Of a stretch of 64,000 nt of DNA, positions 155 through 42,695 are shown piece after piece. Where the stretch lies: positions 1 through 64,000 of IMG/VR virus record IMGVR_UViG_3300032136_000002; one strand, given 5' to 3'. This DNA is from a virus. A model generated the notes under the pieces. It did not search any database. It was not told the origin of the DNA and worked only from the letters and a program-made list of their open reading frames with translations. Position 1 is the stretch's first letter, and every line of letters begins with the position of its first letter. The position numbers were made by a program, and so were the translations under genes.

Positions 155-423
155 CTAATTTTGCGCGCTGGAGACCCCCGGCTTTAGCCGGGGGAGGAAA
201 GCGCGCCCTCCTTTTGGGTTGTAAAGCGCTTCGCTCGTGATAGAACGCTGCTGGGGGCCGGGCGGGCCCCAGCAGCACGCGGAGAGACGGTAAGACATCG
301 GCGAGGCTTCCCCTCGACGCTGCGCGTCGAGGGGAAACGTGAACCATCTTGATAGGTTGTGACTAATAACCAAAGTTGCTTCCTTTCAAGAATCCCTCGC
401 CTTTAGGCGAGGGAGGACGTCAA
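155..423 (+). mobile_element. non-autonomous IS200/IS605-family element (269 bp, PATE/MITE-like) carrying a TnpB omegaRNA-like scaffold, copy 1
   Basis: Left end GAGA+hairpin CCCCCGGCTTTAGCCGGGGG; right end GAAT+hairpin CCCTCGCCTTTAGGCGAGGG...TCAA; no TSD; preceded by CCAT; near-identical to 13127-13395 and 56930-57198. Confidence 0.9.
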
Positions 424-4122: not shown

Positions 4123-4290
4123 AGGCAGCAGACTGGACTTAGTTGACATCCTCCCCGGCATAAACGCCGGGGATTCCTAAGCGGCCTTTGCCGCTCGGGA
4201 GCGTCTCTTGCGAGCTGCTCGCGGTTTCTGCTTCGCTGAGGGCCCCAATGAGCCCTCTCCACAGACTGACAGGGTCTGCCCGACCCTCAA
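4123..4290 (-). ncRNA. TnpB omegaRNA (reRNA) with right end at 4143 and guide CTAAGTCCAGTCTGCTGCCT
   Basis: Scaffold overlaps the tnpB 3' end (GGGTCGGGCAGACCC...GTGGAGAG...GAAGCAGAAACC) and ends GAAT-CCCCGGCGTTTATGCCGGGG-AGGATGTCAA. Confidence 0.75.
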
Positions 4291-5406
4291 GATATTCTTA
4301 GCAGCGTTGATGTCCGCATCATCCTCGTGGCCGCAGGCCACGCAGACAAAACGTGCTTGTGTACGACGACTCTCAGAGCTGACGTGCGCGCATCGTGCGC
4401 ACGTCTGACTGGTGTACTTCGGCGGTACAGCTACAACCTTCCCACCTCGCCATTGCCCCTTGTAGGTGAGCTGGCGGCGAAATTCAAACCACCCCTGGTC
4501 GAGAATAGCTTTGTTCAAGCCTGCTTTGCTGCGGACGTTTTTCCCCGGCTCTTCCGTGGTCCCACGTGCCGATGCGCTCATGTTTTTAACTTTCAAATCC
4601 TCAACATACACCACCGCGTGGCTTTTGCTGATGGCCGTCGAGGTTTTGTGCAGAAAGTCGTTTCGAGCGTCGGCAATGCGGATGTGCAGCCGAGAAACGA
4701 CTGCTTTCTGTTTTTTCCAGTTGCTGGAAAATCTCTTCTTCCGTGACAGGGCACGTTGCGCGGTGCCCATTTGCTTCTCCAAACGTCGGAAGCTATCTAT
4801 GGGCTGAACAAGCTCGCCGGTCGACAGGGCGGCGAACTTCGCCACCCCCATGTCGATGCCGACCTCGGACGAACTTGGATGAATGGAGTCTGCTACCTCT
4901 CGCTCGGTCTGCACCGAGATGAACCAGTGGGCACCACGGCGCTTGACGGTAACGTTTTTGATGGTTCCTTCGATTTCTCGGCTCTTACGGAACCGTACCC
5001 AGCCAAGCGCTGGCAGCTTGATTCGACGACCATTGACCCCGATGCTGTCGTTCGCCTGCGAAAAACGGAAGCTATCGAACGACCGGCCCTTCTTCTTGAA
5101 GCGAGGAAAACCTTTTCTTTTCAAGAAGAAGTCGCTGAAGGCCTTGCCCAAATCCTTAAGAACCTGTTGCTGTGGCCTACTGTGAACCTCGGAGAGAAAC
5201 GAAAGCTCTGGGTCGTTTCGGGCTACAGTGAGTTCGCGACAAAGCTCTGCATAGTTCAGTGTTTTTGAGTGCTTACTTAGACGATGCTTCTGCAGGGCAA
5301 GAGCTGAATTCCAAATAAAGCGTATAGCTCCCGCCGTGCGCTCCAAAATCACACGCTGCCCTTCGGTAGGCTCGATTCTGAACTTGTAGCCTTGACGCCG
5401 CAGCAT
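4177..5406 (-). CDS. tnpB: IS200/IS605-family RNA-guided endonuclease TnpB (409 aa)
   Basis: N-terminal GYKFRIEPT HTH_OrfB; RuvC residues GIDMG, VEDL and DADINAA intact; C4 Zn finger CARC/CVAC; no tnpA in the window. Confidence 0.95.
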   Translation of the reverse strand: MLRRQGYKFRIEPTEGQRVILERTAGAIRFIWNSALALQKHRLSKHSKTLNYAELCRELTVARNDPELSFLSEVHSRPQQQVLKDLGKAFSDFFLKRKGFPRFKKKGRSFDSFRFSQANDSIGVNGRRIKLPALGWVRFRKSREIEGTIKNVTVKRRGAHWFISVQTEREVADSIHPSSSEVGIDMGVAKFAALSTGELVQPIDSFRRLEKQMGTAQRALSRKKRFSSNWKKQKAVVSRLHIRIADARNDFLHKTSTAISKSHAVVYVEDLKVKNMSASARGTTEEPGKNVRSKAGLNKAILDQGWFEFRRQLTYKGQWRGGKVVAVPPKYTSQTCARCAHVSSESRRTQARFVCVACGHEDDADINAAKNILRVGQTLSVCGEGSLGPSAKQKPRAARKRRSRAAKAA

Positions 5407-5876
5407 CGCGCTCGTGTAGCACCGGTGTGCGCTCCCAACAAGCAGAAAAGCTACTTCACCTAACTCCCGCTGAACCCTAGGGGCGCACCTACCCCCGTGT
5501 AAACCACTGAGACCACTCAAAGCGCAGGATCTTGTTTCAGCCCCCGCGTAACTTTGATACAACGCCCGTTCACGTAATCCGTTGGTGAAACAAGATGAAG
5601 CGCAGACAACACAGGGGAGGGAGCAGCCAACACGCTTAAAAGACGAAAGCCATCAGCCCGGCAGAACTGATGGCTCCTAAGTCTGTCTATTGACCTAACC
5701 AGTCAAGGCGAGTCCTACCGCGAGTCGTCCCGGAGGTCAATAGGTAAAGAGTGCAGAGCTGCCTCTTATTGAGGCACTATGTATACATCTCCGCACATTC
5801 AATCGTCTTTTTATTGCGTCACCTGCCGAGTGAACGTTGTCGCTCCCCCTGTTCTGACTGCGCAGGGAGCAACGAA

Positions 5877-13126: not shown

Positions 13127-13395
13127 CTAATTTTGCGCGCTGGAGACCCCCGGCTTTAGCCGGGGGAGGAAAGCGCGCCCTCCTTTTGGGTTGCAAAGCG
13201 CTTCGCTCGTGATAGAACGCTGCTGGGGGCCGGGCGGGCCCCAGCAGCACGCGGAGAGACGGTAAGACATCGGCGAGGCTTCCCCTCGACGCTGCGCGTC
13301 TCGGTGAAACGTGAACCATCTTGATAGGTTGTGACTAATAACCAAAGTTGCTTCCTTTCAAGAATCCCTCGCCTTTAGGCGAGGGAGGACGTCAA
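13127..13395 (+). mobile_element. 269-bp non-autonomous IS200/IS605 omegaRNA element, copy 2
   Basis: Near-identical to 155-423; preceded by TCAT; ends TCAA. Confidence 0.9.
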
Positions 13396-14288: not shown

Positions 14289-16361
14289 CTACTTGGCTCC
14301 TCGTCTCCCGAGTCGGGAGAACACAGGGGCGGTCAAAGGAGCGAGTCCTTTGGTCCGCCGACGCAGGACCTTACTCACCCTACTCGTGCCCAGTACTGAA
14401 GAGAGTCGCTCTCTCGCTCCTGACTCACTGGCGAACTTCGCCAACCGAGGGTGGAGCTCGGCCGACCCCTGTTTGGCGGTCATGGCCTCCACGGCCTCCG
14501 GCCCCTTGGCCCCGCCTATGAACCCACCTATGACGCCGGGGAGATGAGAGTAGGCTCCGAGTGCTTGAGCTCGAGCCCTATCCATTACCATTTCCCGCTG
14601 TCCTCCCATCGCCGCAAGTTGCTCTGGGCTGAAGGCCTGACCGGTTTGAGGGTGGAACTGAGGCACGGGGCCTACGCCGGCCGCGGCCCGGTTTTGAGCT
14701 TTGACTGAGACCACCCCACCGATGCCGCCAGCTGCGGCCCCGACGGCCGCGCCCATGACGGCACCCTTGGCCGCCTCACGGATGGCGTTGGCCCGCCGAG
14801 CCTCCGCCTCCATCTCTTGCGTCTTCCCGTAGGTCGTTACTCCGCGGCTGAGGCCGCCACCGACTGCACCGATGATGGCACCCTTGGCCGCGCCGTAGCC
14901 GGCCCTCTGAAGGGCACTTAACGGGGCAGCCTGTTTACCCAGGCCAATGTCTTGCATACGTCGGGCGATCTCTTGTCCACCCATGCCTACAGCGTATTCT
15001 TCGCTGCCCTTGGCCGGCCCTCCAGAGGGAACGGTCATCTCTCGTCGGCGGCTGACGGTGACGTCCCCATCGCTAGGGTTTTCGGATAGTGACCTGAAGA
15101 GCTGGCTGAGCTCATCGGTGGACAGTCCTTTGAGCTGGTCGGCCAGCTCATCGACAGAGGCGTCGGCCATCTCACCATCCATGGCCACCTTGCGTAGCCA
15201 GGTTGTAGAGGATGAGGGTTGCCACATGGCGGCTTGCTTCTCTTTGAGGTCTGCATCTTCCTTCTTACCGAGCTCAGGGGTGGCCTCAGGTTCGAGTTGT
15301 TCCGCGTCGACAGCGCTCTCCAGCTTCGAGCTCTCTTCGGTCAGCCGCTTGATAGCGGGCCGGACTCGGCCGACGGCCGGAAGCTTCACTGCTGAAGCGC
15401 CGGCCAGCACGCTTTGCTTGCGAGGCTTGGGGTACTGGCTCATGGGGAGTTGAACAGTCGTGGACCCCGCGGCCAGCTTCTCCGAGCTCGTCTTGGGCAG
15501 CGCCCCGCCGGCGGGAGTCGGCACCTGCGGGGCACCCGCTATGGGACTACCAGGTCCAGGGGAAGCCATCTCTTCGCCGCCGGGGGCGGCCGGAGCTGGA
15601 GCCGCTTGTTGGGCGGCTTGCATCTCACCACCTACTGCTTCCTGCTCTTCGGCTAAGCCGGCCTGAGCCTGCTGTTGCTCGGCCTCGAGCTGGGCCTTCT
15701 GGGCCTCTTCTTGCTCTTTGCGCACTTTGGCCGGCGCCAGGGGGTCAGGCTCGACGAGGGGTGGACCCGCAGCCTCCATGGGTGGTGGGCCAGCGGCCTG
15801 ACCTCGAAGGTCGGCCAAACCCTGGGCCATCATCTCGAGCTGGCCCTTCATGTCCGTGGCCGCCTGGGCTAACTGCTCCCGCTGCTCCATGGACTGAACG
15901 CGCTCTGAGAGGCTGGCCTGTTGAGCGTTGACCGCCTGCTCTTGAGCCTGGGCCTTCTCTTGGGCCTGCATCTCAATCTCAGCCTGCATTTGCTCTTGCG
16001 CCTGTTGGGCCTGCATGAGCTGTTGCTGGGCCATCTGCTCCTGCTGAGCCACCATAGCGAGCTGGGCCTGAGAGGCTTGAAGCTGCTCGGCGAGCTCAGC
16101 GTTCTCCGCCTTGGCCTGCTCGAACTCAAGGGCCGCTGCCACGCTAGGGTCAATCAGCGCTCGACGCTCAATCTCAGGCAGCGCTTCAACGCCACGACTC
16201 ATACTGATGGCGGCGATCTTGAGCTGACCAGCCTGCACCTGAGGCGTGCGGACAGGGGGAGGACCGGGGACCGTGGGCCGCTGAAGGTCGACCAGGAACT
16301 CGGCTGCCTTCTCGAACGGAATCTCACCAGAACCGGTGAGCCAATCATCGAGCCTCGACAT
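14289..16361 (-). CDS. large coiled-coil K-x-A motif internal/ejection protein
   Basis: Q/A/E-rich coiled coil, several KxA motifs, C-terminal glycine-zipper helices. Confidence 0.6.
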   Translation of the reverse strand: MSRLDDWLTGSGEIPFEKAAEFLVDLQRPTVPGPPPVRTPQVQAGQLKIAAISMSRGVEALPEIERRALIDPSVAAALEFEQAKAENAELAEQLQASQAQLAMVAQQEQMAQQQLMQAQQAQEQMQAEIEMQAQEKAQAQEQAVNAQQASLSERVQSMEQREQLAQAATDMKGQLEMMAQGLADLRGQAAGPPPMEAAGPPLVEPDPLAPAKVRKEQEEAQKAQLEAEQQQAQAGLAEEQEAVGGEMQAAQQAAPAPAAPGGEEMASPGPGSPIAGAPQVPTPAGGALPKTSSEKLAAGSTTVQLPMSQYPKPRKQSVLAGASAVKLPAVGRVRPAIKRLTEESSKLESAVDAEQLEPEATPELGKKEDADLKEKQAAMWQPSSSTTWLRKVAMDGEMADASVDELADQLKGLSTDELSQLFRSLSENPSDGDVTVSRRREMTVPSGGPAKGSEEYAVGMGGQEIARRMQDIGLGKQAAPLSALQRAGYGAAKGAIIGAVGGGLSRGVTTYGKTQEMEAEARRANAIREAAKGAVMGAAVGAAAGGIGGVVSVKAQNRAAAGVGPVPQFHPQTGQAFSPEQLAAMGGQREMVMDRARAQALGAYSHLPGVIGGFIGGAKGPEAVEAMTAKQGSAELHPRLAKFASESGARERLSSVLGTSRVSKVLRRRTKGLAPLTAPVFSRLGRRGAK

Positions 16362-17976: not shown

Positions 17977-19095
17977 TCAGTAGCTGTCCACCGACGGGAA
18001 GGTCAGTCCATCGTCGGCCCGGTGGTTCGGGGCGCCGAGGTCCTTGACCTCCTTCGGGCTCACGTCAGCCAGGATACCGTCGGCATCGTTGGACGTGGCG
18101 TCACCGGAGTAGAGCTCCAGCTTGCGCACGGCCGCGATGTTGGCGATGACCATGGCGATGTCTTCCCAGGCCTGGAACGTAATCAAGTTCGCGATCTTGT
18201 CGATGTAGAACTGGACGTTGTTCAGGACGAAGAAGCAGCCCAAGTAGTCCGGGTCCGTGAAGACGTACACGTTGCCGGGTCGGAGGATGTCGGTCTTGAC
18301 CGTCCGGACGAAGCTGAAGCCCATGACCATCTGGTACTTGTAGCCGTCGACCGTGGTCTCGCTCTGGACCTTGTCGCCCATGTCCTCGACCGTCCACTGG
18401 TGGAGGTCCAGGAACTCGCCCTCGGTGAAGAGGAACTTGCGCGGGCGCAGCCGGTTGTTGGCCAAGAGCTTGGCCAAGTTGGTCAGGTCCGGCTTCTGGA
18501 GCGGATAGACCGTGGCGTCGTCAGTGGCGGCCTGACGAGCGATGGAGCCCTTGCGCACAGAGGCCTCAACCGTGGTGCCGATGGCCGACGCGTTGAGCGT
18601 GGTCACGGAGCCACCGTTGGCCTCTTGCTGCACGGCTTGAACTGCCGCCTCGATGTGGATGGTCCACTCGCGGTCTTCAATCTCCTGGATGTCTTTGAGG
18701 CTGTTGTCCTCAATCCACTTGGTGATGGAGACGTCGTAGGCGTACAGCTCCTGGGTGAACTTCTCGAACTTCTCACTCGAGATGGTGTAGAACGGCACCT
18801 CGATGCGAGGAGCGCGGATGATGCGGGCGTCGGGCTGACCACGGAAGGTCAACGGCATGGCCCGGCTCTCGGGCTCGAGCGTGATGAGTTTCGTCACGGT
18901 GTCGTAGTTGACCGAGGGACGGACGTCCGCCTTGGTCACGGGCTCGGGCGGAACGAAGTTCCGAGCGTAGGACACCTCGCGCAGCCGGTCCCGGATCATT
19001 TTGCCGGTCAGCTGAGCGATCTTGTTTTTGCCCTCCGGCGTATCGAGCCGGGAGGCGAACAGGTCATTGATCAAGCTATAGTCTGTGCCTGACAT
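17977..19095 (-). CDS. major capsid protein (HK97 fold)
   Basis: 372 aa; follows protease, scaffold and decoration genes; IRDRLRE..., DIQEIEDRE spine helix; very high GC3; followed by a terminator. Confidence 0.8.
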   Translation of the reverse strand: MSGTDYSLINDLFASRLDTPEGKNKIAQLTGKMIRDRLREVSYARNFVPPEPVTKADVRPSVNYDTVTKLITLEPESRAMPLTFRGQPDARIIRAPRIEVPFYTISSEKFEKFTQELYAYDVSITKWIEDNSLKDIQEIEDREWTIHIEAAVQAVQQEANGGSVTTLNASAIGTTVEASVRKGSIARQAATDDATVYPLQKPDLTNLAKLLANNRLRPRKFLFTEGEFLDLHQWTVEDMGDKVQSETTVDGYKYQMVMGFSFVRTVKTDILRPGNVYVFTDPDYLGCFFVLNNVQFYIDKIANLITFQAWEDIAMVIANIAAVRKLELYSGDATSNDADGILADVSPKEVKDLGAPNHRADDGLTFPSVDSY

Positions 19096-20014: not shown

Positions 20015-21244
20015 TCACATCATTGGGTTGCCGCCAGCCGGCGAGGGCTCGACGGTGGACGGGACATTGGAGGCTCCAGGAACGCTACCGTTTTGGGCCT
20101 CTTTCTCAGACGCACCTGACTTGGAATCGAGGCGAGACGCGACTCTGCAGAACTTGCACTCCCCTTTCTCAAGGCCTTCCTGTTCACAGGTACAGCCCTC
20201 GGAGGCAATCTTGCTGATCAGTGCCCGAGCTGCGGCGATTTTGAGCTTCCGCTCACTCGCGATCTTCGCCCCGGCTTGGTCAACAACTTGGGCTCCCAAA
20301 GTCTGGTCCAATGCCTTATCGGTAGAGCGGGTCAAGGCCTTCTCACTGAGCAGAGCCGCGAGGTCCTGCTTTGAAAGAGCCTTGGCCTTCCGTTTGGTCA
20401 GATTCAGAGCAGCCTCGTTGGAGGCGAGCATGGCCCGCTGTCCTTCAGCTCCCGCGGCGAGCGGGGCGTTGAGTGGACGGTCCTCTGGCAAGACCGCACT
20501 CTTCGAGGCACGGATGTTGGTCTTGGCGTTGTCCTCCGCATACTTCTGATGCATGGCGGCGACGTACTCTTGGAGCGACCCCGTTTTGGCTTTCGCCCCA
20601 CGCTCTTTGCCCACGTACTTGTGGATGTCCCCGAAAGACATGGAACTGGGGTCTTTCCCTGTCGCCTTTTGGTAACGAGAGAAAGCCCCCTTGAGCTCCG
20701 GACTCTTGGGGTTCTGCGCGAGGACATCAGCTAAGGCCGCTTGTTTGGCCTGAGCAGCCTCATTGGTCGCCATGGCGGCAGGAGCATTCTCCTGCAGCAC
20801 CTTCTCTTGAGCAGGGTGGGTCGGGATCTTGGCCCTGGCCTCACCAAAGTTGGACGGCGCCGACTCCGCCTGCTGCTTCACATTGGTGGGCATCTGAGTG
20901 GCGTTCTCAGGGGCCCCTTCCATGGCCGTGACTATCCGGCCGACCGAAGACTGGTCGCCCTGGAGCAGGACGCGGACCACCTCTTCGATGGCACTGGCCA
21001 TCTTCTCCACACGGTCCCGGTCGGTGTCCTCCGACTCAGGGTTGTCCTGACCGCCGCCTTGGGCCTTTTCTTCCTTCTCGGCCTCGCGCTCGGCCTCATC
21101 TTTCGACTTGCGAGAGGGGGCTTTGCTTTCGCCTTGAGCTTCTGCCGATTCATCCATCTCATCGGCTGCTTGGGCGATCTTGCTCAGCGCCTGCCCCTCT
21201 GCGCCAGCCAAGACCCCATCGATCATCTGTTGGAGCGTGAGCAT
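20015..21244 (-). CDS. scaffold-like K-x-A motif protein (409 aa); first six codons and RBS appear to be a recoded replacement
   Basis: About 8 KxA motifs; a second copy of its 5' end lies at 21562-21579. Confidence 0.7.
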   Translation of the reverse strand: MLTLQQMIDGVLAGAEGQALSKIAQAADEMDESAEAQGESKAPSRKSKDEAEREAEKEEKAQGGGQDNPESEDTDRDRVEKMASAIEEVVRVLLQGDQSSVGRIVTAMEGAPENATQMPTNVKQQAESAPSNFGEARAKIPTHPAQEKVLQENAPAAMATNEAAQAKQAALADVLAQNPKSPELKGAFSRYQKATGKDPSSMSFGDIHKYVGKERGAKAKTGSLQEYVAAMHQKYAEDNAKTNIRASKSAVLPEDRPLNAPLAAGAEGQRAMLASNEAALNLTKRKAKALSKQDLAALLSEKALTRSTDKALDQTLGAQVVDQAGAKIASERKLKIAAARALISKIASEGCTCEQEGLEKGECKFCRVASRLDSKSGASEKEAQNGSVPGASNVPSTVEPSPAGGNPMM

Positions 21245-21319
21245 GCGTGTATCCTTTCAGAAACACAGAGGAAACATGGGTGCTGACGCTTCCCGTGCTT
21301 CCGCCAAGTTACTTTCCGT

Positions 21320-21581
21320 TGCGAAGCTCCCAGCTTTTGCTACAAAGCCGCTGGGGGCCGGGCGGGCCCTTTCAGTACGTGGAGAGACGGTAAGACAGCA
21401 CCGGGGCTCTCCCTCGGGGTTGCTCGTTTCGTTGAAGCGTGAACCATCTTGGAAAGAGCGGGCGATAACCAAGCCCACTCCACCCAAGAAGCCGCTTTTT
21501 TGATGGAAGCGGTGGACGCCAAGTGCGCCCCCGCCACCAACCAGAAGGCGGTGGACGTCAACTGCTGTAGCGTGAGCATGC
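21320..21581 (+). ncRNA. stand-alone TnpB omegaRNA scaffold with duplicated 3' end and two guides
   Basis: Scaffold GCTGGGGGCCGGGCGGGCCC...GGAGAGACGGTAAGACA...GAAGCGTGAACCATCTT shared with the 269-bp elements; repeat GCGGTGGACGYCAA at 21509-21522 and 21548-21561; promoter-like TTGCGA-N16-TACAAA. Confidence 0.75.
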
Positions 21582-21591
21582 ATTTCCATTC

Positions 21592-21879
21592 TCACACCCG
21601 CACGGGTGGCGGGGGCACCATGTGGGCCCCCGCCACCACCGAGTTGTCCGGTTGCACGACTTCTGTGTTTGGAACGGTGTAGTTGGTCTTCTGCAGGTTG
21701 GTCTTGGAGACCACCTTCCCAACAAGCTGCTTAGACGTAGTGGGTTTGGACGGATTGCTTTGCATCCGTTTCCCATCCCCTCCAGGGTTGGGAGGGCTGA
21801 TGATTGAGGGGTGTGAAGTGTACGCTGCAATCTTCAGCAGCTCCTCAACCATCGCCCGATAAAAGACCGGCGTGATCAC
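21592..21879 (-). CDS. small K-x-A motif internal protein
   Basis: N-terminal FYRAMVEELLKIAA. Confidence 0.7.
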   Translation of the reverse strand: MITPVFYRAMVEELLKIAAYTSHPSIISPPNPGGDGKRMQSNPSKPTTSKQLVGKVVSKTNLQKTNYTVPNTEVVQPDNSVVAGAHMVPPPPVRV

Positions 21880-28856: not shown

Positions 28857-28895
28857 GGAAACCCACCCCATCACGTGAGTGGTGGGTTTCCTTTT
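28857..28895 (+). terminator. intrinsic terminator between convergent genes
   Basis: GGAAACCCACC/GGTGGGTTTCC stem followed by TTTT. Confidence 0.75.
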
Positions 28896-30699
28896 AGTTT
28901 CCTACCATATCGTACTCAATCGGGATGATGATGTCCGGCCGTGGGTGAGTAATCATCGAAGCGAGCAAGCAGCTCAGGATGGAATGAAAGGTGTCATCGG
29001 GTTTGCCTGGCGTCCGCTGGAACTGATCCATGTTCATCGACGTCGAGTACTCTTTGAAGATGTTGAGGACGTCCTCGCCGAAGGGCTCTTCAAACTCCTC
29101 CCACTTGGGCAGCCTGATGACACGGCCTGTCTGTTTGAGGGCGTTGAACAGGTCCTGCATAACCTCGGTGCGGAAGACGGTGAAGCGGCCCAGGCCAGGC
29201 TCCCACTTGATCTTCTTTTTTTGCCTCCACACGTACTGGTACTTCTTCACCCGGTCCTTGCCATATCTCCGAGCAAGGGTGTCGTTGCGGTCAAAGCCCC
29301 CGCCGTAGTCAGCTCCGATGATGGAGACCTGGTGGTCGTCGAGGAACTTCATCAGCATGGCCATCATCGTCGTCGGGTCGGCTTCAGTCCCCTCGAAGCG
29401 GTAGCAGAAGAAGATGGTGAAGACCCCTTGCAGGTAGGCCCCCAGGCTGAGCACGGTGTGGCTCGACCCCTCACTGGTACCCCAGTCGATGCCAGCTGAT
29501 ACGCCTGAGTAGTCACCGCTACGGCTGTGCTTCAGGCTGTCGGCCATGCTGATGTGGTCGGCGCAGGTGGCTATGAGCTGAGCCCTCGTGATGGGCCTCT
29601 CACCGGCGTCCGCCGACAGAGCCAGGACCTCGTTGTAGTAGGCCGTCTTCGAGTAGCTCTGCAGGGGGAACAGAATCTTCTCTCGCCACTCCTCCTCGTT
29701 CTGCACAACCCAAGGCACCATGAGCTGACAGATGCGGTACCCGTCATAGGTCACCCGGTCTTGGTTGGCCTCGGTGCGAGGTTGGAACGAGACCCACTGG
29801 GCGTTGGGGTGCATCGGGTTGATGTAGCCCCCGCACTTGTCGCAGATGGGCCCCTTCTTCCCGATGTTCTTCATCCCCAGCGTGTTCCAGTGCCAGGGGC
29901 TGTGCTTCTCACAGGGGATGGCCCACTCGTTCTGCGTCGAGTAGCGGTTCCAGTAGACCGCCATTGTGTTGTCAACAGACTTCGGCGTACCGCTGAGCCG
30001 CTCCAACCTCCAGGGGCTATGACTCGAGCACTGAGCAATGACGGGGATGTTGTCGACGAGGATGTCTTGGAGCTCGTCGAGCAGGTTCAGGTCGCTTGAG
30101 ATACCTCGGACCCGGTCAGCATTGTGGAAGGCGTAGCGGATGCGGATTTGGCTGTGGTTGCGGAACTGCTTGAAGAAGACGTTCTGGCTGAGTCGGCTTG
30201 ATACCAGAGTCGAAATGATCTCACTCATTTCCATCGGCTCTCGAATCCGGTCGGTGGAAAAGACGATGGCCTGCTGTGTGGACGAGGTGACGTACAGAGT
30301 CTTGAAGCCCACGATCAGGCTGGCGTAGGTCAGCGCTGTGTTGCCCAGGTACGTGCTCTTCTCACTCTGCCGGCTGAAGCAGAGCAACACCCTTCGGTGT
30401 TTGGCGTCATAGGGCTCCTTCAGGTAGCGCCGGCCCTTGAAGGAGAAGTTCCGCATCTCCCCCTCGATGGGCATCCTGATGGCGAAGGGAACGAACTCCG
30501 AGGGGAGGATGGTATGGCGGTCAATCTGAGGCCTCTCGTACTCCAGGTCCCCGTAGGCCGCCTCCTCACACTCGATGTCGAGCTCCTTGTCCGCCCGCTC
30601 TTCAGCGTCGAGGAGCTCCTCGATCTCGCGGTCAGTCCACACCCCGGCCCGCAGCTTTTCGGCGGAGATCCGCGGCGTGTGGACAGCTGGAAAGTCCAT
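28894..30699 (-). CDS. terminase large subunit (GpA-like)
   Basis: Walker A variant SRQSEKST, Walker B LLDE, SGTP, nuclease motifs GIDWG and PDDTFHS. Confidence 0.9.
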   Translation of the reverse strand: MDFPAVHTPRISAEKLRAGVWTDREIEELLDAEERADKELDIECEEAAYGDLEYERPQIDRHTILPSEFVPFAIRMPIEGEMRNFSFKGRRYLKEPYDAKHRRVLLCFSRQSEKSTYLGNTALTYASLIVGFKTLYVTSSTQQAIVFSTDRIREPMEMSEIISTLVSSRLSQNVFFKQFRNHSQIRIRYAFHNADRVRGISSDLNLLDELQDILVDNIPVIAQCSSHSPWRLERLSGTPKSVDNTMAVYWNRYSTQNEWAIPCEKHSPWHWNTLGMKNIGKKGPICDKCGGYINPMHPNAQWVSFQPRTEANQDRVTYDGYRICQLMVPWVVQNEEEWREKILFPLQSYSKTAYYNEVLALSADAGERPITRAQLIATCADHISMADSLKHSRSGDYSGVSAGIDWGTSEGSSHTVLSLGAYLQGVFTIFFCYRFEGTEADPTTMMAMLMKFLDDHQVSIIGADYGGGFDRNDTLARRYGKDRVKKYQYVWRQKKKIKWEPGLGRFTVFRTEVMQDLFNALKQTGRVIRLPKWEEFEEPFGEDVLNIFKEYSTSMNMDQFQRTPGKPDDTFHSILSCLLASMITHPRPDIIIPIEYDMVGN

Positions 30700-35866: not shown

Positions 35867-36565
35867 TTAGTACCGAGGGTATCCCGCTTGCCGCTGACCC
35901 ATAGCGCGCCCGCCGGCAAAGCCTGCAGCTGCAGGTACGGCCAAAGCAGTTCCACCCGCCAACGCGCCAACACGCCCCATGTGAGTCCCCATGACTCCGC
36001 GGACGCCACCAGCGCGGTACGCTTCACCCATTTGCTTGATGCCTCCAGACAGCCCCATCTGCCGCCACCCGCGAACACCCTTAGCCAGAGACGACGCGGC
36101 GGCTTGTGTCCCGCCGGCAATGCCCCGACCTATGTCCGCCGCACCGCGCCCCATGCTCCGTACCCCACCAACAACTCCTCCTTGAGCAGCGGCCGGCGCT
36201 GCTGCTGCTGCAGCCGCTGGAGCAGCACGAGGCACCGGAGGTGGCGTTGCTGCCCGTCGAGGTACCGGAGGTGGCGTTGCTGCCCGTCGAGGTACCGGAG
36301 GTGGCGTTGCTGCCCGTCGAGGTACCGGAGGAGGCGTTGCTACGCGCCCAGCGTGTGCCGGAGCCGCCGCAGTGGGAACTGTCGGCCGCGGTGCAGGGGG
36401 ACCCGTCAACTTAGCTTTCGGAGCACGCGTTGCTGACCTTTTCACCGCTTGCGTTAACGTTCGGCCAACTGCCCCCGAAAAAGCCTCTTTGACCAGTTCC
36501 TCACGCAGGAGGTCGCCAATCTCACCAAAAGCTGAACTGAAGAAGACCTCTTGATCGATATGCAT
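35867..36565 (-). CDS. K-x-A motif internal protein with Pro-rich tandem repeat
   Basis: F...EELVKEA N-terminus; (RRAATPPPVP)n; RBS GAGAGGGG. Confidence 0.65.
   Translation of the reverse strand: MHIDQEVFFSSAFGEIGDLLREELVKEAFSGAVGRTLTQAVKRSATRAPKAKLTGPPAPRPTVPTAAAPAHAGRVATPPPVPRRAATPPPVPRRAATPPPVPRRAATPPPVPRAAPAAAAAAAPAAAQGGVVGGVRSMGRGAADIGRGIAGGTQAAASSLAKGVRGWRQMGLSGGIKQMGEAYRAGGVRGVMGTHMGRVGALAGGTALAVPAAAGFAGGRAMGQRQAGYPRY
36228..36341. repeat. 30-bp coding tandem repeat, about 3.8 copies
   Basis: Unit CGAGGTACCGGAGGTGGCGTTGCTGCCCGT. Confidence 0.9.
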
Positions 36566-36575
36566 GTCGCCCCTC

Positions 36576-39500
36576 TCAGTACGGCCCCTTTTTGCCCTTG
36601 CCAAATTCGGCTCCATAAGCAAGCCCTGGGACCGGATGCGCCCCATGCAGGTCGCTAACCCATCCCCGTTGGGCACCCTCTATAACGGTTGACTTCAGAT
36701 TCTCATGATTCAGCCGAGCAAGCCAATCCTCCTGGAGGTCAAGGGGAATTTGGCCGACGCCTTTGATCATGGGCTCGTACTTGATCGGCTTCTTCCCCTT
36801 GAGCTCACCGCGGTTGATTTGCTGGATTGTACCTAAGGGGACCTGGTCATTGCGAACGACATCTATGCTGTCCCCAGGGTCAACTACCCGGGCGTTGTTG
36901 GTCATCGTGCGCACCACCACCTCTGAGTGCCGGCGCTTGACCCCCTCTGCGGAGTAGATGCTATTGAGCTCATCGGCCAAGTAGTTCTGCACTGTGTTCA
37001 CGTTGGTCAAAGGCAACAGCTCATGCGGGTTGACGGGTCCCCCTGTCAAAGGCATCCCCTTCTTCACGCGGTCACCTTTTTTGATGTTGAGCTTCCGATT
37101 GGCCCGTACATAGTGCCGCCGGCCGGCTACCATCACGTTCCACCCACCAGCGGGGTCCTTCTTGATGGACTGTACCGTCCCACCCGTAGAGGCCAGCACA
37201 GCAGAGCCTTTGAGCTTTTGAGTGAGGTTCAAGAGCTCGTTGGAGCGGCCGAAGTCATCAAGGGCTTTCTTCTGTCCTGCAGGGGCCATGACACCCCCGG
37301 CGTGGAACTGCCGCATCTGAAGCTGCGTTCCCCGCTCACCCAATGACTGCGAGGCTAGCACCCCAATGTTTGTCCCCTCGTCATAGAGCTGGCCCGTCTC
37401 AGAGAGTCCCAAGCACTTCTGGCAAACTCCGTTGGTATGAGCGCATCGCATGGGCGAACGGACCACAACCTTAGGGACCTTGGCCTTGCGCATCTGGCTG
37501 AGGTGCTCAGGCTTGAGCAGCGTGCCCGCGGGAATGACGCCGTCACCCACTTTGATATCGAGCTGCGTGTGCCGACCCAAGATGTCGGACTCATCGGTCG
37601 ACAGGGCAATCCCCGCATCGGTCTTGCAGTCAGCTGAGTCGACGAGTTGATTCATCGAAGCGTTGACCAGCCGCTTGGACAAGTACCCCGGCTCAGACAC
37701 AGACTGGACCTTCTGAATGATGCCCTTACGGCCGCCTGACACCGAGGCCCAGTAGTCAGCCGACGAGAGGCCCTCTGAGTAGGAGCGCTCAACGGGAGAA
37801 GGGACCGGTCGACCTTGGGCATCCTCGTACAGCACGGGGGCCGCAGTGAGCTGACGGTAGCCGTTCCCTTTGATGCCAGCGCTGCGCTCGGTGCGGTCCA
37901 AGTTCGTGAGACCCTTCTGGGCTTTCCCCTTCACCTTGGTCTCAATCTCAGTCAACGCATCGGCGTAGACCGAGACCAGCTTCTTTGCGTCCTCCTCCTT
38001 CTCCATGTTGAGACCGGCCGTGCGCTCCCGGGCCTTCTTGAGCACCGGGTCTCGAACGTCGCGGTGAACCTTCAGGTCGTCGAGGCCGACAGTGTACCCC
38101 ATGAAGTAAGCGCGCTCGTTACCCAGGTCCTTGAGTCGGTCGACTCGGCGAGCGTAACTCTTGGGGTCGAGCTCCGCCATCTGCTGGTAGGTCTTCCCCT
38201 GTTCCTTCTTGTCGAACCGGTACTTGAAATCGCTCAGGATCTTCTCATCCTGCATATCCTTGGGGAGGGTGGCGTGCAGCTGCAACCGTCCCAGGGTCGT
38301 CTTCTTCCCCCCGACCTGGGCTACATCGGTCACGTCCAGCTTTCCTTGTTTGACCGCCTTCTCAAGATCAGCTTGGTTGGAAAACTTCAAGTTGGACTGC
38401 TTGCCTACCTCAGTCAGATTGTAGAGCCCGACTTGCATCTCTTTGATGGGCGTATAAGCGACTTTCCCAGAGGCGGGGGAGAAAAGGATGTTCGACGGCT
38501 TCATCTTCTCCGCTTCTTCCACAGCCTCGTTTGTCATAGGAACAAACGCTGCCATGGTATCCCCGTCAAAGTCTGCACCATAAGAGCTGGTCACGAGCGG
38601 ATGTATTTGAATTGCTTTGCCTTCAGTCAACCGAGGTTTGAAAGCTTGAACTCCGTGTTTGTGAAGAACGGGGTCGCGTTTGAGCAACACTGGTCGCTGT
38701 TCAGCCGCGCGCTCAAGCGCCTTATTGGCGATGGCCGTATTCTGTTGGATCTCTTGTTTGGCCTGCATGGGAGTGAGGCCAAAAGAATTACGGATTTCAC
38801 GGACGACGAACGGCTTGTACATCTCCATCGCCGCTTTACGGGGAATGCCCACCTCATCCAAGCTGAGGGACGGCTCCGGCACGATGGTCGAGCGCATCGT
38901 CATGTCCTGCCGCTTCTTGATGAGTTTCCGCTGGTAGAACCCCGTCTTGGGGTTAGCCCCCGCGATGACGTCGAGGATGCCGGGGTAGTCACGGTTGAGG
39001 GTACCTCCAAGACCAGTGAGGCTCTTCATCTCGTCATAGAGCTCGCGACGCAGTGGGGCCCGCTCTTCATCAGGGAGCCCCTTGTGCATGGTGCGGAGCT
39101 TCTGGTTGGTCAGTGAGATGTGCTTGTAGAACTGGTTGACATCTTCAAACTGGATGGACCCATCGCCTGAAACGCTCATCGGCCGCATGACGGGGGGCAT
39201 GACCGGAACGTGCTTGGTCATGTACGCCTCAGTCGGCGAGAGCTTGGCTTTCTTCAAAGCGCTCAGATATTTGATACGCCGGTTGGCCTTGTTGAGCGGC
39301 GTGCCGCGGAGCTTCCCTATCCGCCCCCGTTCGGCCTCGAGCTCTTTGTCGATGTCCACATTCTTGAGCAGCCGACCGACCGCACTCGGCCCGTACTGGG
39401 CCCCCTCAACGTCAGCATCCACCAACTTGCCGTCAGCGGTCACCCCTTTCTCACCATTGATAACCTTCTGGTACTCCTTGCGGTCCACCCCAGTGAGTGA

Positions 39501-42500
39501 GGAGATGGCCCCTTCGAACAGCGGGTTGGGCATGGGCTCGTGCAGCGTGATGTGGCTCCACTTCTTTCCCTCTGTCCCGCCCGTGGTCTCAGGGTCGAAC
39601 AGCCCCCCCTTCTCTGGGTCGAGCGTCCCGGCCTTGACTGACTTGCCTCCGTCTTTGATGGCGCCTGAGCTCGTCTCGAGGACCTGCTTGTCCGTGAGCG
39701 GAAGGAGGTTGAGACTGTTGCCCTCCTTCTCGACGTTCACCCCGACCGTCTTGAGCATCCCCTCGAACTTTTTGAAGGCGAAGGTTGGTTTGGGTGGTGG
39801 AAGGAGCTCGCCGGCTTGCAAAGCACCCCAGAGTTCGTCGTTGTCACCGTGTTGACCTCGATCAGCTTTGTACGTGGCCATCTCGCGAATATTGTGAACG
39901 GCGCCGTGAGATAGCAGGGAGTACAACTCCATCTGTCCCATGGCCTGCCCCCCGTGAGGGTGGCCCGACCGCGGGGCCAGGTTGCGGTCGTAGGAGGCCC
40001 GGGAACGGGCGGTCATCTTCTGGTCGACCTGGTGGTGGAGCTTCAACGTATACTGCTGCCCCGTCATGACGTTAGGAATCTCTTTGCCCGTCTTGGGGTC
40101 AATGAGGTTCTCCGTGTCAGAGAGCTCGGCCTTCTTCAGAGCGGCCTTCACCTCACCCCGCGCATCGTCGAGGGCGAAGTTCTGCACCTTGAAGGGCTTC
40201 CCTTCCTTCTCCGCTATCTTGCCGGCCGCCGTCTCGAGTATCTGGCCTACGTTCATCCGGCCCATGACGCCAAGCGGGTTATGGAGGACCTGAATGGGTT
40301 TCCCGTCCTTGGTCTGAGGCATCTCTGAGTCAGGAGTCACACGAACGACAATCCCCTTGTTAGCGTGACGACTTACAATTTTGTCGCCAACTTGCGCGGG
40401 TTCCTCGGTCTTGACGTGAACCTTGACCCCGTCACGGGACTTGGTGACCTCGACGACCTCACCGGGGAAATCCTGGTCCCAGACCTGGCCCTTGTCGTCG
40501 TAAGTCCGAAGGAGGCTCTTGTGGATGCGGCCGAGGTCCATCTCCCCCTTGCGGACCACACGCTTGGTCATGCCGGCGATGAGCGTGTCTCCGGGCTCCA
40601 CCCGCTGGCCCACCTTGATGACTCCGTCGTCGCCGAGCTTCTCCTGCTGTTTCACCGTCATCCGCTGGGGGAAGTTGGCGACGTAGGACTTCTTCCCCTT
40701 GAGCTCACCCTCGGCCTTGTGAAAGCCCTTCTTATACAGGTGTTCCGACGTGAGTTGGCGAGCTGCGGACTCACTGATGACGATGCCGTCTTCGACGTTG
40801 TGCCCCTTAGCCGGGAGGTAAGCTACGCGGAGGTTGACGCCGGGAGCGTAAGTGCCTCCCTTCGAGAAATTCGTGTCGGCGATGAGCTGCCCCTCTTTCA
40901 CTGTGTCGCCGACCTTCACTTGGGGCTCAGAGTTGAGGACCCCCTTTTTCTCGTTAAGCGGGTAGTTGTCGTAGATCGGAACGTCTTTGACCTTCCCGTC
41001 TGCGCCCTTGATTTTGATCGAGTCCTTCTCGACGCCGACTACCTCCCCTGCAAGGGGAGCCGTTTGAGCGGTGAAGCTTCCCATCACGTCATCAAAGCTC
41101 TTGCCGCCCTGGACCGACTGGACTAGCGGGGCCTCCCGGTACTTGAGGGAGACGGCCTGCTCCTGGTGCCGCCCGCTCATGGTCACCCGGTTCTGGGAGT
41201 TGTTCCCGAGGAAGGGGACCATGTTGAGGGGGAGTGAGAACATCTGGGCCGCCGAGGGCATGACGTAGTCAGCCTTCTTCATCGAGGTGAGCCCCATCTT
41301 CCCCTCTTTGAGGCTGGCCTTAAGCTGGTCCCGCTTGGGGGTGGGCTTCCCGTCCTTCCCCCACGTCACCTCATCGGCCATAACCACGACTTTCTCTTGT
41401 GCCGTGGCGGGGTCAACTCTCTCCACTTTCCCCGTTTTGGTGTTGTAGAGGGGGATGGTTATGCTACCCTTCTCTTTACGCATTCCAAGCGCAGTGTGAA
41501 GAGTTACGCCTGTCTTCGGACCTTCCGGAGTATGGAGGGGGTCTAGGAACCCCAGGTGTGAAGGGTCAACGAGCTTCACTTCCTCGGTGAGCTTGTGCTC
41601 ACTCTGAATGCCTCCCTCGGTCCCAACGACGGTGGTCTTTTGCTGACCGCCCACCATAGCCACGGGGTTTGTGTCGTCGGCTTGGTTGGCCAGGGAGCTC
41701 TTGGCGAAGAATTGGTTGATGGGCCGGTTGAAGTAGTCCGTACCCACGATGTCTTTGATCTTGCCCTTGCGGTCCAGGTTGTTCAGAACCCGTCGCTCAA
41801 TGATGGGCTTCTGCTCTTTGATGCGGTTCGAGATGAAGTCCTCAACCCCTTGGAGCTGCTTGAACTGAAGAGACTCCCGGTTGTCCGGCTCCCGCTCCCC
41901 CCGAGACACCTTCAAAAGGTTGGAGCTGGTTTCCATCATGGCCACTGGGCCCAACGTTTTTATGGGCTTACCGAGAGTCTTCTTGGTAACCTCCGGGTCG
42001 AGCTCAGCTCCCTCGAAGCGATCTCGAATCACCTGAGAGGCATCTTCAAAGGTGGTCGCCTTGGCCCGCGGGTTGATCTTTCCCGCCAGGCGGATGATGT
42101 CTTGCTCCACCTTCTTTTGGTCCACCTTGTTGGCAGCGAAGATTTCGCGACCCCACTTCTTCTCGAGGGCCTTATCCCCTACGCCCAGGGCCTGCATGAC
42201 GGAGTAAAGCGGGGGGTTGGACCCACCGATCCGCATCTTGAACTTCCGTTTGCCTGGGTCAAAATCAAGGTGGTAGGACCCACCCCTGATGTTGATTTGG
42301 CTCTCAAGCTCGCCGTTCTGCTTCACCCTCGAGTAGACCCCCGGTCGCAAAGTCCAGAGGTTGTCCGTCTGATACTCAGTCCCGTTGACGATGTACGAGT
42401 ACCTGCGGGTGATTTGAGGTAGTGTGGCCACTCGCCTGGTCGAGGTATCAACTACTTTGCCCGTCTTGTTGTCGACTAACTCGAAAGAAGCTTTGACGAC

Positions 42501-42695
42501 TGATCCAAAGGTACGCCCGGCCAGCTTCTTCTCTTTCTGCGTCCGAACGTCATGCGTGTCTGGCTCGTCTGTGACCTCAACCCCGGTCACCCTGAGAGTC
42601 TGAGCACTTCCTTTGATAGGGAATGACTGATGAATCGCCTTGGTCACCCGTTCTTTGAGAGCTTCTTGGCTCTCTCGCGGGTCAAGTCGCGCCAT
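36576..42695 (-). CDS. DNA-directed RNA polymerase, fused beta-beta' single polypeptide (2039 aa)
   Basis: Beta motifs TPEG, GDKIVSRHANKG, RMNVGQ, KLHH and GGQAMGQME, then beta' motifs GGLFD, KRDPVLH, GADFDGD, GYLSKRL and GERGTQLQMRQFH, all in one frame. Confidence 0.92.
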   Translation of the reverse strand: MARLDPRESQEALKERVTKAIHQSFPIKGSAQTLRVTGVEVTDEPDTHDVRTQKEKKLAGRTFGSVVKASFELVDNKTGKVVDTSTRRVATLPQITRRYSYIVNGTEYQTDNLWTLRPGVYSRVKQNGELESQINIRGGSYHLDFDPGKRKFKMRIGGSNPPLYSVMQALGVGDKALEKKWGREIFAANKVDQKKVEQDIIRLAGKINPRAKATTFEDASQVIRDRFEGAELDPEVTKKTLGKPIKTLGPVAMMETSSNLLKVSRGEREPDNRESLQFKQLQGVEDFISNRIKEQKPIIERRVLNNLDRKGKIKDIVGTDYFNRPINQFFAKSSLANQADDTNPVAMVGGQQKTTVVGTEGGIQSEHKLTEEVKLVDPSHLGFLDPLHTPEGPKTGVTLHTALGMRKEKGSITIPLYNTKTGKVERVDPATAQEKVVVMADEVTWGKDGKPTPKRDQLKASLKEGKMGLTSMKKADYVMPSAAQMFSLPLNMVPFLGNNSQNRVTMSGRHQEQAVSLKYREAPLVQSVQGGKSFDDVMGSFTAQTAPLAGEVVGVEKDSIKIKGADGKVKDVPIYDNYPLNEKKGVLNSEPQVKVGDTVKEGQLIADTNFSKGGTYAPGVNLRVAYLPAKGHNVEDGIVISESAARQLTSEHLYKKGFHKAEGELKGKKSYVANFPQRMTVKQQEKLGDDGVIKVGQRVEPGDTLIAGMTKRVVRKGEMDLGRIHKSLLRTYDDKGQVWDQDFPGEVVEVTKSRDGVKVHVKTEEPAQVGDKIVSRHANKGIVVRVTPDSEMPQTKDGKPIQVLHNPLGVMGRMNVGQILETAAGKIAEKEGKPFKVQNFALDDARGEVKAALKKAELSDTENLIDPKTGKEIPNVMTGQQYTLKLHHQVDQKMTARSRASYDRNLAPRSGHPHGGQAMGQMELYSLLSHGAVHNIREMATYKADRGQHGDNDELWGALQAGELLPPPKPTFAFKKFEGMLKTVGVNVEKEGNSLNLLPLTDKQVLETSSGAIKDGGKSVKAGTLDPEKGGLFDPETTGGTEGKKWSHITLHEPMPNPLFEGAISSLTGVDRKEYQKVINGEKGVTADGKLVDADVEGAQYGPSAVGRLLKNVDIDKELEAERGRIGKLRGTPLNKANRRIKYLSALKKAKLSPTEAYMTKHVPVMPPVMRPMSVSGDGSIQFEDVNQFYKHISLTNQKLRTMHKGLPDEERAPLRRELYDEMKSLTGLGGTLNRDYPGILDVIAGANPKTGFYQRKLIKKRQDMTMRSTIVPEPSLSLDEVGIPRKAAMEMYKPFVVREIRNSFGLTPMQAKQEIQQNTAIANKALERAAEQRPVLLKRDPVLHKHGVQAFKPRLTEGKAIQIHPLVTSSYGADFDGDTMAAFVPMTNEAVEEAEKMKPSNILFSPASGKVAYTPIKEMQVGLYNLTEVGKQSNLKFSNQADLEKAVKQGKLDVTDVAQVGGKKTTLGRLQLHATLPKDMQDEKILSDFKYRFDKKEQGKTYQQMAELDPKSYARRVDRLKDLGNERAYFMGYTVGLDDLKVHRDVRDPVLKKARERTAGLNMEKEEDAKKLVSVYADALTEIETKVKGKAQKGLTNLDRTERSAGIKGNGYRQLTAAPVLYEDAQGRPVPSPVERSYSEGLSSADYWASVSGGRKGIIQKVQSVSEPGYLSKRLVNASMNQLVDSADCKTDAGIALSTDESDILGRHTQLDIKVGDGVIPAGTLLKPEHLSQMRKAKVPKVVVRSPMRCAHTNGVCQKCLGLSETGQLYDEGTNIGVLASQSLGERGTQLQMRQFHAGGVMAPAGQKKALDDFGRSNELLNLTQKLKGSAVLASTGGTVQSIKKDPAGGWNVMVAGRRHYVRANRKLNIKKGDRVKKGMPLTGGPVNPHELLPLTNVNTVQNYLADELNSIYSAEGVKRRHSEVVVRTMTNNARVVDPGDSIDVVRNDQVPLGTIQQINRGELKGKKPIKYEPMIKGVGQIPLDLQEDWLARLNHENLKSTVIEGAQRGWVSDLHGAHPVPGLAYGAEFGKGKKGPY

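Follow-up and report, generated by a model that had tools for sequence, protein, structure and literature searches.

Within the head-gene cluster of this phage lies a 335-bp cassette (21227-21561) that holds a complete guide RNA of transposon type, and the question it raises is whether this RNA still serves the phage or is what an old insertion left behind. The original prediction saw in it an immobilised TnpB omegaRNA with two guides, aimed at the flanking genes of related phages that lack the cassette, the carrier being protected by synonymous changes. We re-derived its coordinates and match counts from the sequence and found all of them correct. In what follows, the window is the whole 64-kb stretch of DNA that was analysed, which is part of a 102,280-bp record.

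The cassette as an insertion at the start of gene B

20015-21244, minus strand: gene B, 409 aa, scaffold-like by position, no family match
21223-21226, plus strand: TCAT motif, the left insertion boundary; on the minus strand, gene B Met7 and the first base of Ile8
21227-21246, plus strand: rebuilt gene B start (six codons and 2 nt), which is the guide-2 near-target in the carrier itself
21232-21292, unstranded: long imperfect hairpin of ~23 bp, which folds and has a terminator-like call
21592-21879, minus strand: gene A, 95 aa, a conserved small protein

The cassette is the relic of a non-autonomous IS200/IS605-type element with a complete omegaRNA, inserted after TCAT. It is an insertion because six distinct cassette-less relatives have gene A and gene B adjacent, with gene B starting 7-15 nt after gene A. 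The insertion point is directly 3' of TCAT, six codons into gene B, and the boundary is exact: when the empty site is reconstructed in silico, the reading Gln-Gln/Met-Ile is restored, as in all relatives. On the far side of the cassette, the displaced ATG of gene B still lies 12 nt after the gene A stop codon, and this layout of stop, spacer and start recurs in the relatives.

At its left end, in the place of the usual transposase hairpin, the cassette brings a ribosome-binding site that is new to gene B, together with the six displaced gene B codons in recoded form. A 20-nt near-repeat of the flank in this position is not a normal product of the IS200/IS605 family. Because the gene B N-terminus (MLTLQQ) is invariant across six homologues, we infer that the rebuilt start kept the phage viable after the insertion. 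Gene B is located two small genes upstream of the major head protein (17977-19095), and a search of 401 genomes from the phylum to which the closest TnpB relative belongs did not find it. The rebuilt start and the new Shine-Dalgarno sequence (plus-strand TCCTTT, 21252-21257) together make up one arm of the hairpin at 21232-21292.

Three 269-bp non-autonomous elements in the window provide a comparison.

155-423, plus strand: copy 1, after CCAT, immediately 5' of an opposite-strand start codon
13127-13395, plus strand: copy 2, after TCAT, in an ATGA stop/start overlap
56930-57198, minus strand: copy 3, after TCAT, immediately 5' of a start codon

The left 86 nt of the cassette do not align with the left end of these elements, whose left-end hairpin is missing from it, and no Y1 transposase was found in the 102-kb record. 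Having no left end that TnpA recognises, the cassette cannot move by TnpA, and "immobilised" is apt in the sense that the left-end hairpin of the 269-bp elements is gone. The motif YCAT (CCAT or TCAT) precedes all three of these insertions and also both near-targets described below, as predicted.

An origin of the left module as a copy of the gene A 3' end and junction was rejected, the similarity being confined to the 20-nt repeat. Open reading frames of 79, 108 and 112 aa within the cassette were likewise rejected as genes, as they occur only on the phage's own contigs or lack real homologues. A search of the phage collection returned no DNA similar to the locus. Among viral contigs, exact patterns of the scaffold, of the guide-1 target and of the gene B junction gave nothing related, and in genome contigs the scaffold pattern had no match.

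An omegaRNA scaffold with a doubled right end

4177-5406, minus strand: the sole TnpB of the 102-kb record; its own omegaRNA is at 4143-4310
21319-21346, plus strand: weak promoter-like pattern (TTGCGA, 16 nt, TG-n-TACAAA), read from the alignment, a hint only
21331-21522, plus strand: full-length omegaRNA scaffold, a covariance model match that ends at right end 1
21544-21561, plus strand: right end 2, a second 3' arm and tail that can pair with the same 5' arm (21492-21499)

A covariance model (R1) of 46 bacterial members of the phage TnpB clade and the phage TnpB's own omegaRNA matches 21331-21522 at 40.5 bits (E 2.4e-11) over model positions 1-172 of 172, and the 269-bp elements reach 56-57 bits on the same model. 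The scaffold is 78% identical to those elements, with eight double-sided and ten one-sided pair-preserving changes. Judged by this full-length match, it is a TnpB-family omegaRNA, which agrees with the predicted scaffold type. Rfam holds no family for the cassette region. The promoter-like pattern sits where the 269-bp elements have a similar one; a consensus promoter scan called no promoter, including at 21319-21346.

Right end 1 consists of a hairpin (21492-21512; 8 bp, 5-nt loop) and a tail (21514-21522). That the 3' end occurs twice had been predicted, and two copies are present, with the right-end tail at 21509-21522 and again at 21548-21561 with one base different; the repeated unit is not merely these 14 nt. 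It comprises 18 nt, the hairpin 3' arm plus the tail (21505-21522 and 21544-21561, 15/18 identical, 21 nt between). Two 18-nt repeats and a 21-nt spacer give an array-like layout, and "mini-array" describes this sequence arrangement only. Because both right ends share one hairpin 5' arm, the two guides would need mutually exclusive folds, and constrained folds of the two alternative hairpins are close in energy (-32.2 and -35.0 kcal/mol). The tail of right end 1 ends in GCCAA, with C where T is invariant in 47 family members, whereas right end 2 keeps the family-invariant T (canonical GTCAA). Among ~70 bacterial family members none has a doubled right end, all being single, so a working RNA of this kind would be without precedent.

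The phage TnpB keeps the catalytic Asp, Glu and Asp when aligned with ISDra2 TnpB, and a nuclease-dead repressor system was rejected on the presence of these residues. It may not be the cognate enzyme of the cassette RNA, because its own omegaRNA is of a different sub-type (112 vs 40 bits for the cassette scaffold on the family model) and its closest genomic relative, at 70% identity, abuts TTGAC and not YCAT.

Two guides and their near-targets

21523-21543, plus strand: guide 1, the 21 nt that follow the canonical scaffold end
21562-21581, plus strand: guide 2, the displaced original gene B start, with the ATG at 21579-21577 on the minus strand
21605-21637, unstranded: near-perfect palindrome in the last codons of gene A, with CCAT in its loop
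21618-21641, plus strand: CCAT and the carrier's guide-1 near-target, gene A codons Val-Val-Ala-Gly-Ala-His/Met

There are indeed two guide positions, and they are not equivalent. Guide 1 is the canonical guide, because the scaffold, according to the family model, stops at right end 1. Guide 2, by its sequence, is the original insertion flank, in a non-canonical position from which it would need the alternative hairpin to be presented. Guide 1 (21523-21542) matches 21622-21641 at 16 of the first 17 positions and 17/20 overall (mismatches at 4, 18 and 20), behind CCAT at 21618-21621; this near-target is a site 99 nt away and not the flank of the present insertion. Guide 2 (21562-21581) matches 21227-21246 at 18/20 (mismatches at 4 and 7), preceded by TCAT at 21223-21226. 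Both near-targets lie less than 340 bp from the cassette, on the same strand and immediately 3' of YCAT. Position -5 is A at both, and T or C at the three 269-bp insertions.

A chance origin of these matches is excluded. When three mismatches or fewer are allowed, each guide matches one further site, and no more, in all 102,280 bp of the record: the adjacent one. Reversed-pattern controls over the same record gave zero matches, and four control guides, those of the three 269-bp elements and that of the TnpB element, match nothing in it at four or fewer mismatches. Within the 64-kb window, a 17-mer with a copy at one or no mismatch within 400 nt is found at three loci only, and such a copy is preceded by YCAT at only 2 of 63,183 positions. 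The window-wide and record-wide counts led us to reject the possibility that the guide-1 match arose by chance from GC-rich sequence.

As claimed, the mismatches at position 4 of guide 1 and at positions 4 and 7 of guide 2 fall on third codon positions of genes A and B, read on the minus strand, and are synonymous. The carrier's recoding shows no departure against codon bias; recoding against bias was rejected as a signature, since usage is unremarkable.

The guide-2 allele comparison rests on distant relatives (L094, L012, L095 and L099). The Gln5 codon of gene B is the guide version and not the carrier version in 4/4 relatives that keep Gln-Gln, which makes the functional copy in the carrier the derived state. 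Across all 12 seed bases L094 agrees with guide 2, behind CCAT, and the other three have one or two guide-2 seed mismatches each. On the alleles read, then, Gln5 and the L094 seed side with the guide and not with the carrier's codons, as the original prediction expected of cassette-less phages. Closer homologues of genes A and B (P0002-P0006 and P0012-P0016; 65-88% protein identity) are known here as proteins. In the closest gene A homologues VVAGAHM is retained and the next residue is V, S or T; the V and T forms permit YCAT with a perfect guide-1 seed.

Homing, scar or regulation

The reading in which the cassette steers a TnpB against cassette-less relatives, as homing or exclusion, is coherent, and we adopt it tentatively. 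Under it, RNA would be made from the plus strand and loaded in trans by a cognate TnpB of the phage, of an unsequenced part of the phage, or of the host. The canonical 3' end would present guide 1, which would recognise YCAT followed by the gene A codons Val-Val-Ala-Gly-Ala-His with GCG for Ala, and the alternative hairpin would present guide 2, which would recognise TCAT or CCAT followed by the original gene B start, that is, the empty site. Co-infecting relatives with such alleles would be cut 0-100 bp from the cassette position, and would either be lost or be repaired from the carrier, with the cassette copied in. The carrier's own mismatches in the 12-nt TAM-proximal region (4 and 7 for guide 2; 4 for guide 1) should blunt self-cleavage. 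Such a scheme would be the standard logic of TnpB homing, extended in the manner of free-standing homing endonucleases.

Several observations speak for homing: a full-length, structure-preserving omegaRNA; the polarity and boundary of the insertion, with the frame restored; unique YCAT near matches for both guides, where four control guides have none; the guide version of Gln5 in 4/4 relatives and the L094 seed; the retained VVAGAHM; an intact TnpB; near-equal hairpin energies; a published in vitro test in which two adjacent mismatches within positions 1-12 abolish TnpB cleavage (PMC10097598); and the published discussion of "non-restorative homing" (PMC13565253) taken up below. Against it, guide 1 has only one seed mismatch to the carrier site, whereas that in vitro test used double mismatches. 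The sub-type of the phage TnpB and the TTGAC of its relative also weigh against it, as do the C for an invariant T in right end 1, the A at position -5, codon usage with no recoding against bias, and the 0/~70 family members with a doubled right end. In addition, drift, or recombination with a related phage, equally predicts synonymous differences. The predicted RNA-guided attack on cassette-less alleles is partly supported, by the insertion, the omegaRNA, the Gln5 codon, the L094 seed and the retained catalytic residues, and is weakened by the doubtful cognate and by differences that fit drift or recombination just as well. In its complete form, with a fixed two-guide omegaRNA, alternative hairpins and a TnpB in trans that cuts gene A and gene B alleles of cassette-less phages under synonymous self-protection, we consider it rather unlikely.

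If it were true in that form, the cassette would be the first case in nature of an RNA-guided system that parallels free-standing homing endonucleases, and would represent a natural intermediate with two spacers on the way from a transposon guide to a CRISPR array. TnpB homing is known from transposons that restore themselves in bacterial chromosomes and plasmids; between competing phages it has only been proposed in the literature found (PMC13565253), and the term "non-restorative homing" is used there in discussing spread into co-resident DNA that TnpB drives in the absence of TnpA. A working cassette would mean that the guide RNA of a transposon can lose its mobility and take a nearby site as its new target, and that a genome can hold a near-target shielded by silent changes. 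It would also mean that a doubled right end can carry two guides, which bears on the origin of CRISPR arrays from single guides.

The closest known system is the TnpB-omegaRNA homing of IS200/IS605 elements, including omegaRNA-only elements (Karvelis 2021, PMC8612924; Meers 2023, bioRxiv 10.1101/2023.03.14.532601). The cassette shares with it the scaffold family, the order of tail and then guide, placement just 3' of a short motif, apparently with no classical duplication of the target, a guide that equals the empty-site flank, and a TnpB in the same genome that is nuclease-competent by its residues. It differs in having no TnpA-recognised left end and in sitting in the 5' end of an essential gene with a rebuilt start, by virtue of which the carrier's motif still precedes the near-target. 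Its right-end arm and tail are doubled, and its canonical guide corresponds to a site 99 nt away and not to the present flank. The T-even free-standing homing endonucleases SegF, SegG and MobE ("intronless homing", marker exclusion; PMC13565253) likewise lie between conserved phage genes, and the proposed targets in the neighbouring genes of relatives, the distinction of self from non-self by a few substitutions, and the expected co-conversion or exclusion in mixed infection are also alike. Here, by contrast, target choice would lie with an RNA guide and with a nuclease whose gene is elsewhere, not with a protein of the cassette, and cleavage is only proposed.

Nearly as likely as homing is that the cassette is an inert scar. 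A miniature omegaRNA element would have landed in gene B, whose start was rebuilt by a rare rearrangement or by recombination with a related phage, the old start staying as flank. A second illegitimate event, for example template switching with a copy at the gene A CCAT of a relative, would have doubled the right end. With no present transcription or loading, the near matches would be history. Guide 2 would need no selection, since any IS605-type insertion flank resembles a guide for its empty site, and purifying selection acting on the functional copies, or descent from a donor phage, would account for differences that are synonymous only. The unremarkable codon usage, the mutated family-invariant base in right end 1, the lost transposase hairpin, a cognate TnpB that is only putative (different omegaRNA sub-type, TTGAC relative), the promoter scan that called none and a doubled right end without precedent are all in line with it. 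However, the scaffold has kept its full length and its base pairs, and the displaced 20-nt flank, although it should be free to drift, has only two differences, at least one of which arose in the functional copy. Two separate rare events must also each have yielded a YCAT-adjacent near match in neighbouring genes, and repeat-mediated deletion should have removed a useless 335-bp insert that lies between 20-nt repeats. Even as a scar, the locus, which is small and fully defined, would show clearly how a phage can rebuild a gene start and in this way survive an insertion in an essential gene.

A regulatory RNA, in which the plus-strand transcript or the 23-bp mRNA hairpin tunes gene B translation or the A:B ratio, as antisense RNA or as guide for a TldR-like TnpB repressor, is improbable: the hairpin at 21232-21292 does cover the ribosome-binding site and start codon of gene B, and the cassette is antisense to the late operon, but the hairpin may be a mere by-product, and a repressor guide should match its own genome perfectly, whereas both guides are seed-mismatched. 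Transcription-repressing domesticated TnpB relatives exist, the nuclease-dead TldR proteins (PMC10705468), whose omegaRNA-type guide is likewise non-mobile and directed at one fixed gene; unlike TldR, the phage TnpB has all three residues of the catalytic triad, and its candidate guides are mismatched to the carrier genome.

The layout of the cassette can also be set beside CRISPR arrays and the type V transposon-CRISPR intermediates (TranC). Similarly to these, an 18-nt repeat and a 21-nt spacer are followed by a second repeat and spacer, all of them downstream of a scaffold of TnpB type; unlike them the cassette has only two units, its repeat is part of the scaffold hairpin, and there are no adaptation genes. 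Two TranC structures (PDB entries 9jfo and 9jfq) are among the matches listed in the comparison of the phage TnpB.

Structure and insertion history of the cassette

The cassette, a 335-base insert at 21227-21561, combines an omegaRNA fixed in place with a reconstructed gene start and a right end that is doubled. It lies in the head module of an IMG/VR virus record of 102,280 bp (estimated 56% complete, the window being its first 64 kb), among genes on the minus strand.

Head-module genes around the cassette
17977-19095, minus strand, major head protein
20015-21244, minus strand, gene B (409 aa), between the major head protein and the large terminase
21592-21879, minus strand, gene A (95 aa), between the same two genes
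28894-30699, minus strand, large terminase

Neither gene A nor gene B has a match in Pfam or PHROGs, and gene B is termed scaffold-like by position only. Residues 1-27 of gene B are invariant across six homologues of 65-72% identity, and the gene is unlikely to withstand losing its first six codons together with the ribosome-binding site. Along the minus strand, the gene A stop codon (21594-21592) is followed by a 12-nt spacer and an ATG plus five codons, reading MLTLQQ (21579-21562). Next comes the right end in reverse complement, and after it the remaining cassette sequence. A Shine-Dalgarno sequence then precedes a repeated MLTLQQ, which runs on into Met7 and the remainder of gene B. Once 21227-21561 is deleted in silico, gene B reads through without a break and starts 12 nt after gene A.

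Metagenome and viral contigs yielded six distinct relatives (L012, L094, L095, L097, L098 and L099, with L100 a duplicate of L099) in which the cassette is absent and gene B begins 7-15 nt after gene A, reading Gln-Gln-Met-Ile or -Val; two of these records gave neither a TnpB nor an omegaRNA match. Such cassette-less junctions point to a lineage-specific insertion directly 3' of TCAT, just as IS200/IS605 elements insert directly 3' of their motif. Read on the opposite strand, the YCAT motif (CCAT or TCAT) is ATG followed by a purine, the ATG here being internal Met7. The left 86 nt of the cassette hold the new Shine-Dalgarno sequence and six codons in place of the usual left-end hairpin; the repeat in this left module is limited to ~20 nt, and the remainder resembles nothing nearby. 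Together with the new gene start, the left module is predicted to fold into a long hairpin of ~23 bp.

The omegaRNA scaffold and its doubled right end

We built a covariance model on 46 bacterial omegaRNAs plus that of the phage's own TnpB, and scored the related features of the window.

TnpB and omegaRNA features with covariance-model scores
4177-5406, the sole TnpB in the record; its own omegaRNA, 112 bits
155-423, 13127-13395 and 56930-57198, the 269-bp elements, omegaRNA-bearing and 99% identical; 56-57 bits
21331-21522, cassette scaffold; 40.5 bits (E 2.4e-11), from first to last model position

The cassette is 78% identical to the 269-bp elements, with eight pairs changed on both sides and ten changed on one side with pairing kept, in a structure picked to fit both sequences, so that broken pairs are invisible in this comparison. 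The full-length match and the kept pairs argue for a complete omegaRNA, of a sub-type common to the 269-bp elements and distinct from TnpB's own RNA. A weak promoter-like pattern at 21319-21346 is matched in position in those elements.

Among about 70 bacterial relatives of the phage TnpB gathered for comparison, right ends follow one plan, in which a hairpin of 8 bp with a 4-nt loop leads into a ten-base tail (ending GTCAA) and the flank comes next. In the cassette, 18 nt at 21505-21522, comprising the hairpin 3' arm, one base and a tail of nine bases, appear again at 21544-21561 (15 of 18 bases identical), the copies being spaced by 21 nt; the single 5' arm (21492-21499) can pair with either 3' arm, the predicted folds being less than 3 kcal/mol apart. 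The first right end has canonical geometry but a tail C where 47 of 47 aligned family members have T; in the second, which directly adjoins the true insertion flank, the T is retained. Since the model stops at the first of the two, the canonical guide position falls to 21523-21543 (guide 1) and not to the flank at 21562 (guide 2). No doubled right end was found among the bacterial family members examined, among which the two-guide layout is unprecedented. As pure conjecture, the doubling could have arisen by a template switch with a copy formerly at the gene A site.

Guide matches and alleles without the cassette

The original prediction was that the two guides nearly match the flanking genes behind YCAT, and on re-check its coordinates and counts were all correct. 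Across the whole 102,280-bp record, the single further match at up to three mismatches is 21622-21641 for 21523-21542 and 21227-21246 for 21562-21581, both on the same strand as the guides and directly 3' of CCAT or TCAT. Reversed-pattern controls of both guides gave zero matches in the complete record, and nowhere is there a match, at up to four mismatches, to the 20 bases lying 3' of each right end in the three 269-bp elements and the TnpB element. Only three loci in 64 kb contain 17-mers with a copy at up to one mismatch within 400 nt, and YCAT precedes such near-copies at 2 of 63,183 positions. Because the matches are unique and YCAT-adjacent, the controls empty and local near-repeats scarce, the pattern is real.

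Outside tandem repeats, the one other such near-repeat (14755 and 14872, 117 nt apart; 14744-14891) lies in ORF 14289-16361. The guide 1 target, a run of gene A codons that follows CCAT at a distance of 99 nt, sits inside a near-perfect palindrome (21605-21637) with 12-bp arms, in the last codons of gene A and with CCAT in its loop. This palindrome may mark a favoured insertion site for single-strand transposons, or may fold as an RNA structure where gene A ends.

It had further been proposed that non-carrier alleles carry the guide version, and DNA of distant relatives bears this out in part for guide 2. At guide position 4 (Gln5), four of the four relatives keeping Gln-Gln have CAG, as does the guide, and the carrier's functional copy has CAA; the change thus arose in that copy. 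At position 7 (Leu4) the relatives read CTT, CTA, CTG and CTT, the guide CTA and the carrier CTC. All twelve TAM-proximal bases of L094 match the guide behind CCAT, but the other relatives have one or two seed mismatches each. Close gene A homologues keep, at the protein level, Val-Val-Ala-Gly-Ala-His-Met, then Val, Ser or Thr, of which the Val and Thr forms may carry CCAT or TCAT with a perfect guide 1 seed. TnpB cleavage is abolished by two adjacent mismatches within positions 1-12 and tolerates distal ones (PMC10097598). On that basis the carrier should be safe at its gene B site, where the seed has two mismatches; protection is less sure at its gene A site, which has one.

Possible function and the candidate nuclease

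RNA-guided homing or exclusion is the most coherent account, favoured tentatively, in which we infer expression, loading and target alleles; it passed one partial allele test, in distant relatives. The cassette is then a variant of TnpB-omegaRNA homing, with some features common to free-standing homing endonucleases. Weighing against function, position -5 is A at both carrier sites versus T or C at the three recent insertions, codon usage does not point to forced recoding (34% of Gln codons are CAA; among Leu codons CTC is preferred and CTA is least used), and the sole hint of transcription is the weak promoter-like pattern. In addition, purifying selection, or donation of the rebuilt start by a related phage, would equally leave synonymous-only differences, as expected of an inert scar, a contender that we rate almost as likely as homing or exclusion. 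A scar would need two independent rare events, both of which left, in an essential gene next to the cassette, a near match adjoining YCAT. Also against a scar, the scaffold is intact, and the displaced 20-nt flank, expected to drift freely, differs from the functional copy at only two sites, at least one of which changed in the functional copy. A regulatory role for the cassette is improbable.

If homing or exclusion is at work, the phage TnpB is an uncertain candidate for the nuclease, given the different RNA sub-type and a nearest relative that abuts TTGAC. In the phage enzyme, Asp, Glu and Asp line up with the catalytic residues of ISDra2 TnpB, and no Y1 transposase was found in the record. 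Bacterial TnpB relatives use TTGAC or TTTAC; the closest genomic one (70%), in the Gemmatimonadaceae assembly L014, belongs to a complete IS (900-2740) with a divergent tnpA, after TTGAC and just downstream of an apparent tRNA 3' end. This relationship hints at the host phylum, in 401 genomes of which gene B was not found. Within 4143-5600, the phage TnpB element has a canonical right end, and upstream of the gene no left-end hairpin can be recognised; with no TnpA in the record, this copy too may be unable to move. One possible boundary of the element is a TTCAT lying ~190 nt before the TnpB start codon.

The 269-bp elements follow CCAT or TCAT, each immediately 5' of an opposite-strand start codon, and part downstream genes from their original ribosome-binding sites. 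One splits an ATGA stop/start overlap, its right end re-creating the upstream gene's stop codon. Elsewhere, a 30-nt unit is repeated five times in tandem (36198-36377) at the overlap of minus-strand ORFs 35867-36676 and 36576-42695.
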